Both the position numbers and the translations under genes were made by a program. DNA of 14,525 nucleotides. Origin: a virus. Under the pieces are notes generated by a model. It made no database searches and had not been told where the DNA came from. It saw nothing but the letters and a program-made list of their open reading frames with translations. The stretch lies in UHGV virus genome UHGV-1637634; one strand, written 5' to 3'. Numbering within the stretch: the first letter of the stretch is position 1; each line of letters begins with the position of its first letter. Of the stretch, positions 3 through 14,492 are shown piece after piece.

Positions 3-926
3 GATTTTTGCGCCTTTATTCTGACTCACGGGCGACCGGACAAAGTTCTGACTTACCGAACGTTGCGTCGTGCTGGCTATACCGGGAAAATTTTTATCGT
101 TGTTGATGATGAAGATAAGACACGGCATCAGTACATGGCTGAATTTGGTGAACAGGTGCTGGTGTTTTCCAAAACCGATATCGCCAGTCGTTTTGACGAA
201 GCCGATAATTTCTGTGACCGCCGCTCAATTTTTTACGCCCGTAATGCCTGTTTCGACCTGGCAAAACTGGTCGGGTGTAAATACTTCATTCAGCTCGATG
301 ATGATTATCACGAGTTCCAGTTTCGGGTGGATCGCAACTATGACCAGGCCTATTTTCCGATAAGGAAACTGGATGCGATCCTTTCTGAAATGCTGGCGTA
401 CTACGAATCAATACCTGCTCTTTCCATCGCTATGTCGCAGGGCGGGGATTTTCTTGGTGACAATGGCGGCCATGCTTCGTGGGTGAAACGCAAGGCAATG
501 AACAGCTTTATCTGTTCGGTTGATCGACCGTTCTCATTCATGGGGCGCATTAACGAGGATGTGAATACGTACACGAATCTCGGTCGCTGTGGTGAATTGT
601 TTATGACGATCGGTGCTGTCCAGTTAGGGCAGAAACAGACGCAGAAAAACAGCGGCGGAATGACCGAGCTGTATCTGGATTCCGGAACCTACGTTAAAAG
701 TTTTTACTCCGTCATGTATGCGCCGTCGTGCGTAAAAATTTCACTGATGGGTGCCAGCCATAAACGCATTCACCATCAGGTCACCTGGAACAACGCTGCA
801 GTAAAAATCCTTCACGAAAAATACAGGAAGAAGACACCCTGCATATCAATGGGGGTGACAAATGATTCCGTATTCGAAAGTCGAGTCTCTGGCAGCGTGC
901 CGGATGACTGCACAACAAATCGCTGA
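3..926 (+). CDS. hypothetical protein, 5'-truncated at window edge; possible GT-A-fold glycosyltransferase
   Basis: Frame is open from position 3 to the TGA at 924-926 with no convincing start or RBS inside the window (the track's start at 63 is a TTG with no SD), so the gene begins upstream. Translation shows FILTHGRP...KIFIVVDDEDKT, then IQLDDDY (DxD-like) about 70 aa later, then GRINEDVNTYTNLGRCG. This pattern resembles nucleotide-sugar GT-A (family 2-like) transferases. Functional call is from motif pattern only. Confidence 0.45.
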   Translation, partial: DFCAFILTHGRPDKVLTYRTLRRAGYTGKIFIVVDDEDKTRHQYMAEFGEQVLVFSKTDIASRFDEADNFCDRRSIFYARNACFDLAKLVGCKYFIQLDDDYHEFQFRVDRNYDQAYFPIRKLDAILSEMLAYYESIPALSIAMSQGGDFLGDNGGHASWVKRKAMNSFICSVDRPFSFMGRINEDVNTYTNLGRCGELFMTIGAVQLGQKQTQKNSGGMTELYLDSGTYVKSFYSVMYAPSCVKISLMGASHKRIHHQVTWNNAAVKILHEKYRKKTPCISMGVTNDSVFESRVSGSVPDDCTTNR

Positions 927-2211: not shown

Positions 2212-3493
2212 TGTGCCTCAGGCGCGATTTCTTTCAATGCCCCATAAATTTAAAGCCTATATTGCTGGTTTTGGCTCGGGCAAAACATGGGTTGGGTGTG
2301 GCGGCATATGCAAGGGGATTTGGGAGCATCCAGGTATAAATCAGGGATATTTTGCGCCAACGTATCCCCAAATTCGCGATATTTTTTACCCTACAGTGGA
2401 AGAAGTTGCTGCTGACTGGGGATTGAACGTAAAAATTAATGAGGGAAATAAAGAGGTTCACTTTTATTACGGACGCCAGTATCGGGGAACCACTATCTGC
2501 AGATCGATGGAGAAGCCACAAACGATCGTCGGTTTCAAAATTGGTAATGCGTTGGTGGATGAACTGGACATTTTGCCGAAGGAAAAAGCCAGAACGGCGT
2601 GGCGCAAGATAATTGCACGTATGCGTTATAAGATTGATGGACTTCGCAACGGTATTGACGTTACAACCACGCCGGAAGGATTCAAATTTGTCTACGAGCA
2701 GTTTGTTAAAGCCGTGCGTGAAAAAACAGAGCTGGCCTCACTGTATGGTCTGGTGCAGGCATCTACTTTCGATAATGAAAAGAACCTGCCAGCAGATTAC
2801 ATTCCTTCGCTTCTTGAATCATACCCTCCAGAGCTGATTAAAGCCTATCTTCGAGGACAGTTTACTAACCTGACAAGTGGTACTGTTTACCATCAGTTTG
2901 ACCGGAAACTGAATAATTGCGAAGAAGTGGAGCAGCCAGGGGAGCCGATTTATATTGGGATGGATTTTAACGTTGGAAAGATGGCGGGAATCGTCCATGT
3001 GCTGCGTTTGGGGCTTCCATGTGCGGTAACTGAAATCATCAATGCCTACGATACGCCGGATATGATCCGCATCATTAAAGAACGCTTCTGGCTGTATGAT
3101 GGGAATGATTACCGGAAAGTGAGGGAAATTTATATTTATCCAGATGCTTCCGGGGATTCCAGAAAATCAAGTAACGCAAGTACGACGGATATAGCCCAGC
3201 TTAAGCAGGCTGGTTTTAACGTTGTGGTGAACAGCTCGAACCCGCCAGTAAAAGATCGCGTTAACTCAATGAATGCAATGTTCTGCAATGCCAATGGTGA
3301 GCGTCGCTATAAAGTTAATGTGAAGCGTTGCCCGTTATATGCCGAATCTCTGGAGCAACAGGTCTGGGATGAGAAGGGGGAGCCTGATAAAAAATCTGGC
3401 AATGATCACCCGAATGATGCCGGAGGTTATTTCATCGTTAAGCAATTCCCTATTGTCAAACCGACCGGAAGAGTCACATCACTTCGGATTTAA
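2192..3493 (+). CDS. terminase large subunit
   Basis: Walker A-like motif GFGSGKT near the N-terminus; about 433 aa; follows the small subunit gene with overlap. AAGGAG at 2178-2183 is 8 nt upstream of ATG 2192; alternative in-frame starts are GTG 2183 and ATG 2186. Stop TAA at 3491-3493. Confidence 0.85.
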   Translation: MISPTLNVPQARFLSMPHKFKAYIAGFGSGKTWVGCGGICKGIWEHPGINQGYFAPTYPQIRDIFYPTVEEVAADWGLNVKINEGNKEVHFYYGRQYRGTTICRSMEKPQTIVGFKIGNALVDELDILPKEKARTAWRKIIARMRYKIDGLRNGIDVTTTPEGFKFVYEQFVKAVREKTELASLYGLVQASTFDNEKNLPADYIPSLLESYPPELIKAYLRGQFTNLTSGTVYHQFDRKLNNCEEVEQPGEPIYIGMDFNVGKMAGIVHVLRLGLPCAVTEIINAYDTPDMIRIIKERFWLYDGNDYRKVREIYIYPDASGDSRKSSNASTTDIAQLKQAGFNVVVNSSNPPVKDRVNSMNAMFCNANGERRYKVNVKRCPLYAESLEQQVWDEKGEPDKKSGNDHPNDAGGYFIVKQFPIVKPTGRVTSLRI

Positions 3494-8327: not shown

Positions 8328-8723
8328 ATGATCACTTACGTGACCTGTGATGACGTTGATAATGCGTTTGGGAACGCCTGGACGAGTGAGAACGCTAAAA
8401 ATAAAGCTGTTTTAATGGCTAATGCCTGGCTTAATGGCTTCAACCTGAAAATTAACCCATCCCGTATTCCGGAAGAGGTAAAACTTGCGGGAGCATATGC
8501 AGCCAGAATTGCCTCATTCGGTAAGTTGTTTCAGCAGAAAAATGATTCTGGCGTTGTTATCAGTAAAGCCGTGTCGGCTGACGGGGTCAGTGTATCGAAA
8601 TCATTTTCTGAGTTGCCAGCAAACAGCACTGCATTGCTTGAACCCGATTTACAGCTTGCGATAGCACTGCTGAAACCGTACGGACTTAGTCGCTCACAAG
8701 TCAGGGTTGTGAGGGGGGGATAA
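8328..8723 (+). CDS. putative head-tail connector / adaptor protein
   Basis: 131 aa; first of four small, tightly coupled genes between the capsid and major tail genes. Its stop overlaps the next start (TAATG at 8721-8725). Assigned by synteny with lambda/HK97-like siphoviruses. Confidence 0.5.
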   Translation: MITYVTCDDVDNAFGNAWTSENAKNKAVLMANAWLNGFNLKINPSRIPEEVKLAGAYAARIASFGKLFQQKNDSGVVISKAVSADGVSVSKSFSELPANSTALLEPDLQLAIALLKPYGLSRSQVRVVRGG

Positions 8724-9106
8724 TGGGGCTTCGTGAAGAGATTCAGTCAGAGGTTGCCGCTGCTTTTGATGAGGATTTAGCGGACGCCGTGAGTGATTTT
8801 TCTGGTTCTTACGTTACGCACCGGCACTGGGATCCTGTGACGGAAACTGGCGGCGAATCCACCGCAATCTATACCGGGCGAGGCGTGTTGACACGTTATA
8901 AGCTGGGCAGAATTGATGGGATTAATATTTTGCATGGTGACCTTAAATTAACCGCTCTGGTATGCGAGGTTACGGATAAACCAGCTGTCGACCATATTAT
9001 TGAGATTTATGATCCTGTATCAAGGCAGTTACAACGATACGAGGTAATTACAGCAAGTGTAGATCCTTCCGCATCAGTTTACTCTATCCAGTTAAGGAGA
9101 GCGTAA
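8723..9106 (+). CDS. putative head closure / head-tail joining protein
   Basis: 127 aa; start overlaps the upstream stop and the next gene abuts its stop. Assigned by position in the head-tail joining cluster. Confidence 0.4.
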   Translation: MGLREEIQSEVAAAFDEDLADAVSDFSGSYVTHRHWDPVTETGGESTAIYTGRGVLTRYKLGRIDGINILHGDLKLTALVCEVTDKPAVDHIIEIYDPVSRQLQRYEVITASVDPSASVYSIQLRRA

Positions 9107-9902: not shown

Positions 9903-10865
9903 GTGAGTTCAGGTGCAAAGGTTATCTCGGCATTTATCCGGGAGACAGTTGCAGGCACTACGCCAGCAAGTGGTGACTGGAGTTTATTAAAACGCACAAG
10001 CTGGGGAGTAAAACCCACCCAGAATAAAGGCGAAAATAATGAGATTGGTGGCTCCCGGATGGCTCAGGGGGCGACGCCTGGCACTGTGGATGTCGGCGGT
10101 GATGTTGGTACCAAATTTCGCTGGGGTCAACATGATGATTTTCTTGCATCCTGTTTCGGCGCGGAATGGTCAGGCGATTCTCTGACAATGGGGAATGAGC
10201 GAATAACATTTTCTCTGGCGACCTATGCGTCCGATGTCGGAATTGCCTCTGTCGTCAGAGGAGCGCAGGTTGGCTCATGGAAAATGCAGATCCCTAACGA
10301 CGGCGATATTACAGCGACCGTAACCTTTGCCGGGCTGGGCTGGGAATCAAAGGCCGATGATACGAATTTTATCAAAGGCGAACCTGTGGATAGTGCAGGA
10401 AAGTTACGCTATTCGTTTAAGGAGGTTTCAGCAGTAAGCCTGAATGGTGTTGCCGGAGGTAACGGTTTTTGTATCGACAGTTTTGATATTCAGTTCGATA
10501 ACAAACTCCAGACACAGCATTGTATCGGGACTGGCTCGCCTTATGCAGGAGCAAATATTCCGACTACTTTTACACCGTCCGGTACGGTGACGCTTTCATG
10601 GTCTAAAGCCGCGTGGGAAATCTGGAGTAAAACACTGACTGGAGAAACAGTTCCGTTCAGCTTCACGCTTTCGAATGGAGAGGGGGCATACACTTTCAGT
10701 TTCCCGAAGGTTCAGGTGTCAGGTGAATGGCCTGATGGGGGTAATACTGACATTATCCAGGTTCAATTGAGCATTACCGCAGCAGATGAAGCACCTACGA
10801 TAACCAGAAAAAAATGCTCCCCGACTGCCGTGATCGCAAAAGCCAGTGCTGATGCGATTAGTTGA
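9903..10865 (+). CDS. major tail (tube) protein
   Basis: GTG start at 9903 preceded by a strong SD, AGGAGG at about 9891-9896. 320 aa, immediately upstream of the G/GT chaperone pair. Position and size fit a siphovirus major tail protein. Confidence 0.65.
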   Translation: MSSGAKVISAFIRETVAGTTPASGDWSLLKRTSWGVKPTQNKGENNEIGGSRMAQGATPGTVDVGGDVGTKFRWGQHDDFLASCFGAEWSGDSLTMGNERITFSLATYASDVGIASVVRGAQVGSWKMQIPNDGDITATVTFAGLGWESKADDTNFIKGEPVDSAGKLRYSFKEVSAVSLNGVAGGNGFCIDSFDIQFDNKLQTQHCIGTGSPYAGANIPTTFTPSGTVTLSWSKAAWEIWSKTLTGETVPFSFTLSNGEGAYTFSFPKVQVSGEWPDGGNTDIIQVQLSITAADEAPTITRKKCSPTAVIAKASADAIS

Positions 10866-10877
10866 TTTTCCGTTATT

Positions 10878-10904
10878 CCCCCTGTGGTACTGCACTACAG
10901 GGGG
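10878..10904 (+). promoter_or_regulatory. perfect 8-bp hairpin overlapping the chaperone gene ribosome-binding site
   Basis: CCCCCTGT (10878-10885), 11-nt loop, ACAGGGGG (10897-10904). No U-tract follows. The 3' arm contains the GGGGG SD-like run about 9 nt upstream of the chaperone ATG at 10914. Confidence 0.4.
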
Positions 10905-10913
10905 ACGCATTGA

Positions 10914-11375
10914 ATGAGGTTATGGATGTTTATTCTTAATCAGAAAATTATCATCGGTGGAGAACGCTGGTTTACGCCAATGAAGGACTTAAAACCTGTA
11001 GACGGGTTAAAACTGTTGGTGGCAAGCAGCGATAACGATCAGTATCGCTCCCGTAATGCATTAATCCGTCGTCACATTGAGAAAATGGATGCCAGTTTGC
11101 ACGTCGGAACGAAGGAGTTTGATATTTCAAAAGTTTCCGAGGTAGATTCTGTTGATGATTTACTCATTGATAATGCTGCTCGTTATCTGCTGAAAGACTG
11201 GAAAGGGGTTGGTGAACTGGTTAATGGTGCTGAGGTTGCACTGGAATATACGCCAGAACGAGGGATCGCGCTGCTTAAGCAGAATCCAGAGTTGTACTGG
11301 CAGATCCTTGCAGAAGCAGCCAGCATCGCCCAGGGTAAAGAGCAGCAGAAGCAGGATACGATAAAAAAGCCATAG
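10914..11375 (+). CDS. tail assembly chaperone (lambda gpG-like)
   Basis: 153 aa ORF between the major tail and tape measure genes. Ends ...DTIKKP with the A_AAA_AAG slippery heptamer one codon before its TAG stop. Confidence 0.65.
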   Translation: MRLWMFILNQKIIIGGERWFTPMKDLKPVDGLKLLVASSDNDQYRSRNALIRRHIEKMDASLHVGTKEFDISKVSEVDSVDDLLIDNAARYLLKDWKGVGELVNGAEVALEYTPERGIALLKQNPELYWQILAEAASIAQGKEQQKQDTIKKP

Positions 11376-11683
11376 CCGCCCAGCGGTGGTTATCGGAGTT
11401 CGGGGGAGAAAGGGGGGAAAAGGCAAGATGGAAGCGAGAAAAACTCAGGTTGCCACCGATACCGGAACCAGAAATAGACCCGGTGCTTAAGGAATTGTTG
11501 TACGCCTATTCGGTAATATCCCGTGCCCGACGTTATGCTGGAATGACCGGGGTGCCTTTGCCTTTATCTCTGACAGAGATAAATGAATATTTAGCCACTC
11601 ATCCGGTATTGATTGAGCGCGATGAGTTTGAAGCAGTGATCTTTGCACTGGATGACCAGTATTTTCAGGAGCAGTGTGTGTAG
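10914..11683 (+). CDS. tail assembly chaperone frameshift fusion (lambda gpGT-like), made by -1 frameshift at 11363-11369
   Basis: The -1 frame is continuous from the slippery site into the ORF listed as 11450..11683. That ORF would otherwise need a TTG start and has no RBS. A G/GT frameshift pair at this position is conserved among tailed dsDNA phages. Confidence 0.55.
11363..11369 (+). promoter_or_regulatory. programmed -1 ribosomal frameshift slippery heptamer A_AAA_AAG
   Basis: ATA AAA AAG CCA TAG: AAA and AAG are zero-frame codons of the chaperone ORF. The -1 frame (AAA AAA GCC ATA GCC ...) has no stop from 11363 through 11683, which I checked codon by codon up to 11452. A short possible stem CCGC-cca-GCGG begins 7 nt downstream at 11376-11386. 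Confidence 0.6.
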
Positions 11684-11806
11684 TTGTTAATTACGTACAC
11701 TCTGTTACAGAGATGTGATGGTGTCTTTAATTAAATCGATGATGCTCCTGGAGAAAAGCATTGCGTGGCCTCGTAATCGCTATATCTACTATTATGTCGC
11801 CTGAAA

Positions 11807-11830
11807 CCCACTTCGGTGGGCTTTTTGTTG
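11807..11830 (+). terminator. putative intrinsic terminator/attenuator upstream of tape measure gene
   Basis: CCCAC-UUCG-GUGGG hairpin (11807-11820) followed by CUUUUUGUUG. GGAG at 11834-11837 and the tape measure ATG at 11847 follow. Confidence 0.45.
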
Positions 11831-11846
11831 TCTGGAGTTTTAATAA

Positions 11847-14492
11847 ATGGCAGAGCAAACCTCGCGTCTCGCAATAATTATTGATAGCACTGGAGCAAAA
11901 AATAATGCTGACAATCTGACCTCCTCATTAGTCAAAATGACGCAGGCCGGGGAAACTGCTGCAAATAGCGCAGGGAAAGTGACTAAGGCAACAGAAGATG
12001 AGAAGAACGCGCTCGCAAAATTAAAAGCAGCTATTGATCCAGTTGGTGCCGCAATTGATACTGTCGGTCGACGCTATTCTGAATTAAAGAAATTTTTCGA
12101 TAAAGGGCTTATTGATAAAGAAGAATATGAATTTCTTGTCCGTAAACTTAATGAAACCACAGAGGAATTGAGCGGGGTTGCGCAAGCGCAGAGAGAAGCC
12201 GAGAAGGCCGGAAAACTTGCTGCCGCCCAGCAGGAATCGCAGGCTCAGGCCTTTCAAAGAATGCTGGACAAGATCGACCCTCTGGTTGCGGCGCTAAGAA
12301 ATCTTGAACAACAGCAGGATGAACTTAATGCTGCGTTTGCATCCGGGAAAATAAATGGTTCTCAGTTTGAGAATTATAGCCGAAAAATACAGGAAACACG
12401 GCGAGAGCTTACCGGAGAGGCTCAGGCAGAGCGAGAAGCAGCAAAAGCGCATGATGAACAGGTTGCTGCTTTGCAACGTCTGATTGCTCAACTTGACCCT
12501 GTCGGAACTGCTTTTAATCGTCTGGTAGAACAACAGAAACAGCTCAATGAAGCAAAAGCTAAGGGGATGCTCTCTCCTGAAATGTATGAGGAACTTTCTG
12601 GAAAACTTCGTGCTATGCGGAGTGAGCTTGAGGTTACTCAATCTCAATTAAGCAAAACCGGAATGTCGGCAAAACAAACGGCTTTTGCTATGCGCATGTT
12701 GCCTGCACAAATGACGGATATTGTTGTTGGGTTGTCCACTGGTCAGTCGCCTTTTATGGTGTTAATGCAGCAGGGCGGCCAGCTAAAAGATATGTTCGGT
12801 GGGATTGGCCCGGCGATCAAAGGTGTTGGTTCTTATGTGCTGGGATTAATTAATCCTTTTACCCTGGCCGCAGCAGCCGTTGGCGTCTTAGGGCTGGCTT
12901 ACTATAAAGGCTCTCAGGAGCAGGACGAATTTAATAAATCTCTTATTCTTACCGGAAATCAGTTGGGGACAACCAGCGGGCAATTGGCCGATATAGCTCA
13001 ACGTGCCGGGAATGCGGCTGATTCGACAACTGGCGCTGCGGCGGCAGTATTAAATCAGCTTGTGCGTTCGGGAAAGGTAGCGAGCAGTTCGCTGGAGCAA
13101 GTGACGACAGCGATAGTAAAAACGAGCGAAGTAACAGGAATATCAACCGAACAACTGGTTAATGACTTCAATGAAATTGCAAAGGATCCTGTCAGTGCCA
13201 TATCAAAACTTAATGATCAGTACCATTTTCTGACAATTGCGACTTATAACCAGATTAAGGCGCTACAGGATGAAGGGAACCAGCAGGAGGCCGCCCGCAT
13301 TGCGACAGAAGCATACTCATCCTCAATGATCCAGCGCACCAACCAGATTAAAGAAAATCTTGGTTATCTTGAGACTGCATGGAAAGCTGTCGCAGACTCC
13401 GCAAAATGGGCATGGGATTCCATGCTGGATATTGGCCGTGAGGCCTCCCTTGATCAAAAAATCTCAGATGTTCTCCGTCAAATTGATGAAATAGAAAAAA
13501 ATACCCGACCCGGAGTTTTCGGGTTAGGTGGCATTGGAGATGGCGGAGCTCAAAATAAAAGGCTGGCACGATTAAAGCAGCAATTGGGCGTACTTCAAGC
13601 AGAAAAAATTGCTCAGGACGTCCTAAATTCATCAATAAACGATTACAACAAGCGACAACAGGAAGGAATTGAACTCAGACAGAGAGCAGATGCCTTTTCA
13701 AAACAATATCAGACCCGGGAGCAGCAGAGAGCTAGTGAACTTGCAAAACTGGAAAAGCTAAAGAGTCAGTATTCAAAGGAAGAATATAATAATTTTATCG
13801 CTCAAATAAATGAGCGTTATAAAGATCCAAAGCAACCAAAGGCGAAAGGTTATTCGGATGATGCTGCCCAACGAATGATTGATCATCTGAATCAACAGAA
13901 TGCGTTACTAAGTTCACAAACTGAATTAACCGTTAAATTAAGTTCCTCTGAACAGGAACTGGTTAAGTGGCGTCAGCAGATTGCCGACCTGGAGTCACGA
14001 CCGTCATCGAAATTAACCCAGGATCAGAAATCGCTTCTCTTACACCGGGAAGAAATAACCGCGTTGATGGAGAAAAATGTTGCGATTGAAAAAAATAACA
14101 GGCTAATCAAGGAATCCGCCGAAATAGCTGCATGGCGTGATTCATTGCAGGCTTCGATTGATAATCGTCAACAGGGGTATGATATTCAGATTGCTGGTTA
14201 TGGGGTTGGCGATAAAAATCAGCAACGCCAGCAGGAATTACTGCGGATTGAACGTGAATATAACAATCAGCGTCTGCAACTTGAACGTGACTATGCAGAT
14301 AAATCCCGTGGGATGTCAAATCATGTTTTTCAGGAGAAAATGCAGGCTCTGAATGATGCTCTGGAACGAGAAAAAGAAATTGTCAGACAGAAAAACGAGC
14401 AGCTCGATATTCAGGCAGGAGACTGGGTTAGTGGTGCCTCCCAGGGATTCAATAACTGGCTGGATGACACGGTAATGACTCCAACTTATTGA
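11847..14492 (+). CDS. tail tape measure protein (lambda gpH-like), C-terminally truncated by an IS1 insertion; probable pseudogene
   Basis: The segment [38 protein letters not shown]...[13 protein letters not shown] closely resembles the lambda gpH core ([38 protein letters not shown]...FNKTLVLSGNQAG, from memory). Long coiled-coil regions. The final 7 codons and the TGA stop (14471-14492) are read from the IS1 terminal repeat, so the native C-terminal part of the protein is missing. Confidence 0.85.
12009..12680 (+). repeat. three diverged tandem repeats of about 73-80 codons in the tape measure N-terminal region
   Basis: Protein-level repeats seen in translation: ...[12 protein letters not shown]...[17 protein letters not shown]; ...[12 protein letters not shown]...[17 protein letters not shown]; ...[12 protein letters not shown]...[14 protein letters not shown]. 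The (I/L)DP motifs lie at about 12033, 12273 and 12493. DNA copies are diverged, not identical. Confidence 0.4.

Follow-up and report, generated by a model that had tools for sequence, protein, structure and literature searches.

In the dnaX gene of E. coli (gamma/tau), the slippery sequence is preceded by a strong Shine-Dalgarno-like element and followed by a stable stem-loop; the shift occurs with an efficiency of about 50% and its product is shorter than that of normal translation. The tail assembly chaperones G and GT of phage lambda form another well-described system (Levin, Hendrix & Casjens 1993; Xu, Hendrix & Duda 2004, 2013, 2014, as reviewed in PMC5009743). Among E. coli prophages, the A_AAA_AAG_25 cluster (ECs1801, Sakai prophage Sp9), which corresponds to a tail assembly chaperone, has been accepted as a true case of frameshifting (Sharma et al. 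2014, PMC4066793). The same study found in-phase A_AAA_AAG to be strongly avoided in E. coli genes (z = -10.1; PMC4066793, Table S3). Its E. coli reporters gave 0.29% frameshifting for the bare A_AAA_AAG heptamer and 0.28% for the bare G_GGA_AAG heptamer, 4.3 and 3.8%, respectively, with the IS911 stimulators (PMC4066793, Table S3), and 39 and 43% with the IS3 pseudoknot (PMC4066793).

The window analysed here is a stretch of 14,525 nt from a viral genome (UHGV-1637634); the features relevant to this study are listed in Table 1. It is very likely that the ORF 10926-11375 and the segment 11369-11683 are the tail-assembly-chaperone pair of a Rac-like siphovirus prophage, expressed in the same way as lambda G/GT. 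Most ribosomes would then run to the 0-frame stop and synthesize a G-like chaperone of 149 amino acids. In a small fraction of them, the two tRNA-Lys positioned on AAA-AAG would slip back by one base at A_AAA_AAG; the slipped ribosomes would take GCC at 11369 as the next codon and go on for 104 codons to produce a GT fusion of 252 amino acids ending at 11683. By analogy with lambda (PMC5009743), the fusion might represent a few per cent or less of the product, its G part would bind the tape-measure protein, its T part would recruit the tube protein, and neither G nor GT would end up in the virion.

Table 1. Position of the genes, recoding signals and predicted products around the putative frameshift site (coordinates of the window)
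Feature	Position	Strand	Remarks
Tube (major tail) protein gene	9903..10865	+	Directly upstream of the pair; Pfam Phage_tube_2, E = 1.4e-31
G-like tail assembly chaperone gene, E. coli 'ydaY' family	10926..11375	+	Assigned from ORF, PHROG 313 and synteny
Conceptual GT fusion	10926..11683	+	252 aa: 148 aa from the 0 frame (through Lys-Lys) and 104 aa from the -1 frame
Weak Shine-Dalgarno-like AGGA, putative stimulator	11353..11356	+	6 nt upstream of the heptamer
Slippery heptamer A_AAA_AAG	11363..11369	+	Site of the proposed tandem -1 slippage of two tRNA-Lys
T-like segment	11369..11683	+	-1 frame; 104 codons and stop TAG (11681-11683); PHROG 1189
Imperfect hairpin, putative stimulator	11370..11396	+	11 bp with 2 G-U pairs and one bulge; loop CAGC
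Tape-measure protein gene	11847..14492	+	Downstream of the pair; Pfam TMP_2, E = 7.6e-82; PHROG 24, E = 2.7e-273

The phase of the heptamer was checked against the codons of the upstream ORF (10914-11375). One of these starts at 11364, which places A_AAA_AAG (11363-11369) in phase 0; the ORF ends with ...ACG ATA AAA AAG CCA TAG, so that its stop lies one codon past the heptamer. The -1 frame is open from 11339 up to the stop at 11681-11683, and the 104 codons that would be read after the shift begin with GCC at 11369-11371. The preliminary description of this DNA had proposed a programmed -1 frameshift of the G/GT type, on a dnaX-type A_AAA_AAG lying in the correct phase one codon before the chaperone stop and followed by a stop-free -1 run into the downstream ORF. 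Both the phase of the heptamer and the open -1 run proved correct, and each of the predictions which this proposal makes at the level of sequence agrees with what is found, which argues for programmed frameshifting.

How exceptional such a site is within the window was also assessed. In-phase X_XXY_YYZ heptamers occur 21 times in the coding sequence, which amounts to about 13.9 kb; one of them is another A_AAA_AAG, at 1350, where the -1 frame is closed by a stop after 8 codons. A heptamer by itself therefore proves nothing. Only 2 of the 21 have a -1 ORF that extends past the 0-frame stop, and the second of these (G_GGG_GGA at 8714) just enters the next gene, which possesses its own ATG at 8723. 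What is unusual at 11363 is the combination of the heptamer, a 104-codon extension without a start and the position in the operon.

The candidate pair sits between the tube and tape-measure genes, on the same strand, in a late operon with the order terminase, portal, coat, tail completion, tube, chaperone pair and tape measure. Between T and the tape-measure gene there is a spacer of 163 nt, in which a terminator-like hairpin is found. Several siphovirus or prophage records of E. coli share 99.8% identity with the region. Among 5426 complete E. coli genomes, 1075 contain a match to it, which covers at least 80% of the query in 693. The window ORF 63-926 is a homologue of ynaK (ParB-like). In the Rac prophage of K-12, a deletion fuses ynaK to the middle of ydaY, and everything from terminase through tube is gone; the window therefore represents the undeleted form of a Rac-like late operon. 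On this comparison, K-12 ydaY is a 5'-deleted remnant of what is predicted to be a tail assembly chaperone gene.

The annotation of these genes in databases follows another scheme. The 'YdaY' of RefSeq is a 119-amino acid protein starting at TTG 11016, a copy of the K-12 remnant, and the T frame is called as a separate 66-amino acid 'hypothetical protein' from GTG 11483; in GenBank phage records the T-frame ORF starts at TTG 11498. The records of E. coli, coliphages and Salmonella phages that were inspected contain no annotated frameshift, and none of the papers in the literature library searched connects ydaY with frameshifting or with a tail chaperone. If the arrangement deduced here is right, the database gene models for the Rac-like ydaY pair are wrong.

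For the upstream gene, two initiation codons were considered, ATG 10914, which would give a 153-amino acid protein, and ATG 10926, which gives 149 amino acids. The second is the likelier start, since the corresponding residue (M5 when counted from ATG 10914) is invariant among homologues, a GAGG is located 6 nt upstream and GenBank phage records use the same codon. The G part matches PHROG 313 'tail assembly chaperone' (E = 8.2e-47, 161 bits). Its homologues bear the precomputed Pfam family PF27119 (Phage_YdaY); neither the G part nor the fusion had a match in the local Pfam-A or in NCBIfam. A search of PDB sequences with a G profile found no relative, and an AlphaFold2 model of G, built from an alignment of 10 sequences, had a mean pLDDT of 49.7, too low for its fold to be used.

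The downstream segment was characterized in the same manner. It matches PHROG 1189 (E = 1.8e-36) and, weakly, the C-terminal part of PHROG 313; its score against Pfam Phage_TAC_18 (E = 6e-4, 20.3 bits) lies below the cut-off of 27. The preliminary description held that this ORF has no start or ribosome-binding site of its own. Taken literally this is not so, as the -1 frame contains start-type codons from 11450 onwards (TTG 11450, GTG 11483, TTG 11495 and TTG 11498, with none before 11450 and the first ATG at 11543) and an AAGGA precedes TTG 11498; none of these TTG and GTG codons is conserved in relatives.

These codons are the basis for considering G and T as two independent genes, T being initiated at GTG 11483 (RefSeq) or TTG 11498 (GenBank phage records) and the heptamer being incidental. 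The AAGGA just ahead of TTG 11498 speaks for it, as does the listing of T as a separate 'hypothetical protein' in every E. coli and coliphage record inspected. However, comparison with relatives makes this very unlikely. The stretch from the upstream -1 stop to the junction is free of start-type codons in all 15 non-fused relatives, and across 15 relatives no start-type codon is conserved in the first 58 codons of the T segment. Three relatives (L081, L010 and L013) have no start-type codon at all in these 58 codons. Within the first 59 codons, the only such codon to be conserved is that of Met59, which is buried in the conserved domain. Translation of the T segment must therefore come in from the G frame.

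The 38-43 codons ahead of the annotated starts provide a second argument against independent genes, because they are conserved as protein and vary at third positions. Pairwise nucleotide differences among 16 relatives, counted at positions 1, 2 and 3 of the -1-frame codons, amount to 3585, 2661 and 7554, respectively; the same count restricted to the first 27 codons, i.e. those ahead of the first start-type codon in the window, gives 713, 629 and 1573. This distribution of changes indicates constraint on the protein encoded in the -1 frame, beginning with the codon that directly follows the heptamer. The T product is likewise conserved from its first residue (A[IL]EAQKWLSEFGGE.GEKAKW.REKL.LPPIPEPEID...). 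A further point against independent genes is that the heptamer is kept in phase across genera in spite of the strong avoidance of this motif.

The two parts were also analysed as a single conceptual protein, which reads ...QDTIKK-AIAAQR... across the junction (predicted junction peptide ...QDTIKKAIAAQR). The fusion gives one collinear match with PHROG 313 (E = 1.7e-51), residues 5-249 being aligned with positions 20-246 of the 258 of the profile, and scores 176 bits vs 161 bits for G alone. Neither G nor T had a match above the gathering score with the Pfam families of lambda gpG and gpT (Phage_TAC_2 and Phage_tail_T); the pair would therefore work like lambda G/GT and yet lie outside its sequence families.

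Conservation of the site was examined in 97 related loci, i.e. those in which the junction could be located, obtained from species-representative genomes, viral contigs and individual look-ups. They span E. coli, Shigella, E. ruysiae, Citrobacter, Klebsiella, Raoultella, Serratia, Siccibacter, Scandinavium, Pantoea and Providencia, with a G identity as low as 56%. A slippery heptamer is present in phase at the homologous Lys codon in all of them (97/97). It is A_AAA_AAG in most relatives and G_GGA_AAG in a Raoultella locus (L010), a Pantoea locus (L012) and Acinetobacter phage TRS1. In every case the synonymous third position of the codon before it agrees with the P-site codon (GTA, ATA or GCA before AAA, GTG before GGA), which is exactly what tandem slippage requires. 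The 0-frame tail past the heptamer is not conserved (10, 28, 82 or 112 nt), and the -1 ORF always has 104-119 codons, with 54-99% protein identity. Synteny, conservation of the heptamer, coding constraint on the -1 frame and homology to PHROG 313 and TRS1 together support the assertion, made in the preliminary description, that this is the conserved recoding event of tail assembly chaperones.

The nature of the site raises the question of transcriptional slippage, in which RNA polymerase would lengthen or shorten the A6 run by an A and the edited mRNA would give rise to the fusion. In addition to the run of six A, a Providencia stuartii copy (CP114582) can be cited in its favour: one extra A (A7) puts the same junction in a single frame (TIKK-VIEAQKWL), so that run length has changed at this site, at least in DNA or in sequencing. 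Productive slippage by bacterial RNA polymerase, however, generally needs runs of about 8-9 or more. Moreover, the relatives with G_GGA_AAG have the same two-frame architecture with only three A in a row; since G_GGA_AAG is not a homopolymer, its use argues for ribosomal rather than transcriptional slippage. The matching base before the P-site codon (GTA-AAA, GTG-GGA) is in turn a signature of tandem slippage on the ribosome, and an origin of the fusion in edited mRNA appears extremely improbable.

A different reading is that of decay: a gene that was once continuous would have been disrupted by a frameshift mutation inside a defective prophage, and a fusion protein would not be produced. The K-12 Rac copy is indeed a deletion remnant, and indels in a G run of the T frame shorten T in four loci (L041, L045, L043 and L059). 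Against this, loci in more than 8 genera share the same organization, two frames that meet at a slippery heptamer, and the two-frame arrangement is also found in isolated phages, namely Klebsiella phages, Erwinia phage Gungnir39 (with a non-canonical site), Pseudomonas phage phiPSA1 and Acinetobacter phage TRS1. Purifying selection persists on both frames. Decay is thus exceedingly unlikely to account for the two frames, and programmed -1 frameshifting by the ribosome is retained as the most probable explanation.

At the homologous codon, two isolated phages have a sequence that does not form a canonical heptamer, GTC GCA AAG TAA in Erwinia Gungnir39 and CTG GAA AAG in Pseudomonas Aurca01; the exact slippage rule therefore varies across the chaperone family. 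One might go further and suppose that the shift site turns over freely in this family, through exchange of A_AAA_AAG and G_GGA_AAG, non-canonical sites and the in-frame Providencia fusion, and that single-tRNA slippage on A_AAG is enough. We regard this as a tentative and rather doubtful extension. If Gungnir39 and Aurca01 still make GT, single-tRNA slippage on A_AAG would suffice to set the G:GT ratio; in Gungnir39 it would take place beside a slowly decoded stop codon, and the family would constitute a natural series on how much frameshifting tail assembly needs.

Potential stimulatory elements flanking the motif were then considered. Downstream, the preliminary description had noted a weak 4-bp stem starting 7 nt after the heptamer. 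The stem is really the top of the 11-bp imperfect hairpin of Table 1; this G+C-rich top comprises 6 bp (-8.7 kcal/mol) and begins 5 nt past the heptamer, and the whole hairpin has an energy of -13.1 kcal/mol in isolation. Its energy is statistically unexceptional, and it is not conserved. In a 40-nt context its z-score is about -0.9, which is ordinary for a G-rich composition; the isolated 27-nt hairpin has a z-score of -3.8, a value which depends on the boundaries chosen. A C-to-U change weakens the hairpin in the commonest E. coli variant, and other genera have different structures or none.

The same holds at the level of the family. For 31 unique junctions, the median z-score of the minimum free energy in the 40 nt past the heptamer is -0.28. 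A family-wide stimulatory RNA structure was rejected, as RNAalifold gave only -2.8 kcal/mol for 15 diverse junctions with essentially no covariation, and a scan of 10800-12000 with Rfam detected no frameshift element, its one hit being a chance match to a snoRNA. A long-range stem CCNNCGAA / UUCGGNGG, present in Citrobacter- and Serratia-type sequences, was likewise discarded; it begins directly after the heptamer, so that the ribosome would cover the foot of the stem while the shift takes place, and it also lies on conserved codons.

Upstream, the AGGA is found in most relatives and is missing from Siccibacter and Providencia. It overlaps conserved Gln-Glu/Asp codons and is therefore explicable by protein constraint. 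It appears that the heptamer is probably the main determinant of the shift, as in lambda, and that its efficiency may be modulated by the hairpin on one side and the AGGA on the other; any stimulation would be putative and specific to a lineage.

G/GT frameshifting is textbook biology, and the case found in the window is real but ordinary. A distant member of the family, TRS1, is already annotated, and PHROG 313 is built partly on fusions; the new element would be the recognition of the E. coli ydaY, or Rac-like, version as a G/GT pair. The main value of this result lies in annotation: it would provide a function for two 'unknown' genes and add one more family to the conserved class of G/GT recoding. 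Roughly 700-1000 of 5426 complete E. coli genomes would carry an intact prophage with an unannotated G/GT frameshift. Our understanding of frameshifting and of tail assembly is left unchanged.

Of the systems outlined at the beginning, dnaX has the same A_AAA_AAG, decoded by the shift-prone tRNA-Lys (mnm5s2U34). The window site differs in having only a weak AGGA and an unexceptional, unconserved hairpin, in giving a longer product and in the lack of an Rfam match. The full dnaX-type signal, i.e. heptamer, strong Shine-Dalgarno-like element and stable conserved stem-loop, is absent from it.

ECs1801 is closer in context, since it is also the tail chaperone of an E. coli prophage with a conserved in-phase A_AAA_AAG. 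Membership of the same family was considered and rejected, BLASTP giving no alignment between ECs1801 and the window G protein. The string 'ydaY' does not occur in the supplementary tables of Sharma et al. 2014 (PMC4066793).

Comparison with lambda G/GT reveals both differences and likenesses. By sequence, the pair has no detectable similarity to the G or T families of lambda; the window heptamer is A_AAA_AAG, and its 0-frame stop comes just one codon past the site; and the 163-nt spacer with its terminator-like hairpin lies between T and the tape-measure gene. The reporter value of about 0.3% for bare A_AAA_AAG (PMC4066793) is some 10-fold below the lambda ratio of 30:1 and counts against the parallel. 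On the other hand, as in lambda, the two genes are flanked by those of the major tail and tape-measure proteins, the second ORF occupies the -1 frame and lacks a conserved start, the first ORF carries near its end an in-phase heptamer ending in A_AAG, and there is no evident strong conserved structure downstream. Some relatives of the window locus even use G_GGA_AAG, the heptamer of lambda itself.

The last comparison is with Acinetobacter phage vB_AbaS_TRS1 (TRS1_18 / TRS1_19; NC_031098). The TRS1 heptamer is G_GGA_AAG, its 0-frame stop is 85 nt downstream and its fusion is only about 31% identical to that of the window; the frameshift is annotated there, as a joined CDS in GenBank, whereas it is absent from the E. 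coli and coliphage records inspected. In both cases the shift is in the -1 direction and the T part has 104-110 codons. BLASTP of the window fusion against the joined TRS1 product (E = 4e-19) gives one HSP that runs through the junction, and the shift occupies the same column of the alignment in the two proteins (QDTIKK|AIAAQ in the window, QDIVGK|VTNLY in TRS1). The two belong to the same family, and both fusions cover PHROG 313 from end to end, that of TRS1 with E = 7.4e-61 over profile positions 13-258.

Relatives of the window differ at and around the programmed -1 frameshift site (A_AAA_AAG) that is predicted to join the tail assembly chaperone frame (G) to the -1 frame segment (T) in a GT fusion. 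In Providencia stuartii CP114582.1 (L094, about 3265-3290), seven A rather than six precede the G of the A-run, so that G and T share a single frame (TIKK-VIEAQKWL). The genes called directly downstream at this locus code for 30-132 amino acids, and none of them is of tape-measure size. The seventh A could be genuine, giving a constitutive fusion in a prophage undergoing decay, or it could be an error in sequencing the homopolymer. The canonical heptamer is absent from the homologous site of two isolated phages: Erwinia phage Gungnir39 (L098, about 1975-1995) reads GTC GCA AAG TAA, i.e. A_AAG only with a stop immediately after, and Pseudomonas phage Aurca01 (L097, about 1885-1899) reads CTG GAA AAG. 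The -1 T frame is conserved in both (110-117 codons). These sites suggest that slippage may involve a single tRNA, or that GT may be needed less.

Some relatives (L068-L072, L083, L085, L086 and L007) carry an extra in-phase heptamer, G_GGA_AAA, ~30 nt 5' of the main one. It arises via a synonymous GGT-to-GGA change and falls within the part of the -1 frame that is open before the main site; the window lacks it because codon 11334-11336 is GGT.

Additional in-phase heptamers of the window are listed below with other features. A shift at the A_AAA_AAG in the small-terminase ORF would yield a truncated product of ~88 amino acids, since the -1 frame ends after 8 codons. At the G_GGG_GGA, the -1 frame belongs to the following gene (8723-9106), whose own ATG forms part of an ATGA overlap; G_GGG_GGA is a motif of low efficiency in E. 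coli, and its occurrence here is probably incidental.

Additional heptamers and other features of the window
Feature	Position	Sequence	Context
In-phase heptamer	1350-1356	A_AAA_AAG	within small-terminase ORF 1117-2211
In-phase heptamer	8714-8720	G_GGG_GGA	7 nt 5' of the stop codon (8721-8723) of ORF 8328-8723
In-phase heptamer	13070-13076	G_GGA_AAG	within tape-measure gene; -1 ORF of 28 codons only
Purine-rich run, Shine-Dalgarno-like	11402-11424	GGGGGAGAAAGGGGGGAAAAGG	33-55 nt 3' of main heptamer
29-codon ORF	11715-11804	MMVSLIKSMMLLEKSIAWPRNRYIYYYVA	in T/tape-measure spacer
Terminator-like hairpin and T-run	11807-11830	CCCAC-TTCG-GTGGG	3' of 29-codon ORF

The purine-rich run encodes the conserved T motif FGGERGEKA, and in some loci (L041, L059) its G-runs are prone to indels. 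After the run comes an ATG that is out of frame (11428), from which a 20-codon ORF starts.

In RefSeq, the PGAP model of intact prophages (e.g. NZ_CP050047.1) is a 119-amino acid 'protein YdaY' starting at TTG 11016 (window 11016-11375), a start which removes ~30 conserved N-terminal residues, while the T frame appears as a separate hypothetical protein of 66 amino acids (window 11483-11683). This YdaY model is a copy of the 5'-deleted K-12 remnant. The K-12 Rac deletion fused ynaK (ParB-like) to mid-ydaY (1249-1852 of the K-12 locus, L101; window 63-926 and about 11024), and the terminase-to-tube block missing from K-12 is complete in the window, which thus has the undeleted arrangement. Some genomes encode a ParB-YdaY hybrid protein (P0040).

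The T stop and the tape-measure start are separated by a 163-nt spacer (11684-11846) containing the 29-codon ORF and the hairpin. A terminator at this position in the late operon, if genuine, would require antitermination. The spacer is very unlike those of two related loci, being only 44 nt long in Serratia (L095) and holding an additional gene for 110 amino acids in Klebsiella (L096).
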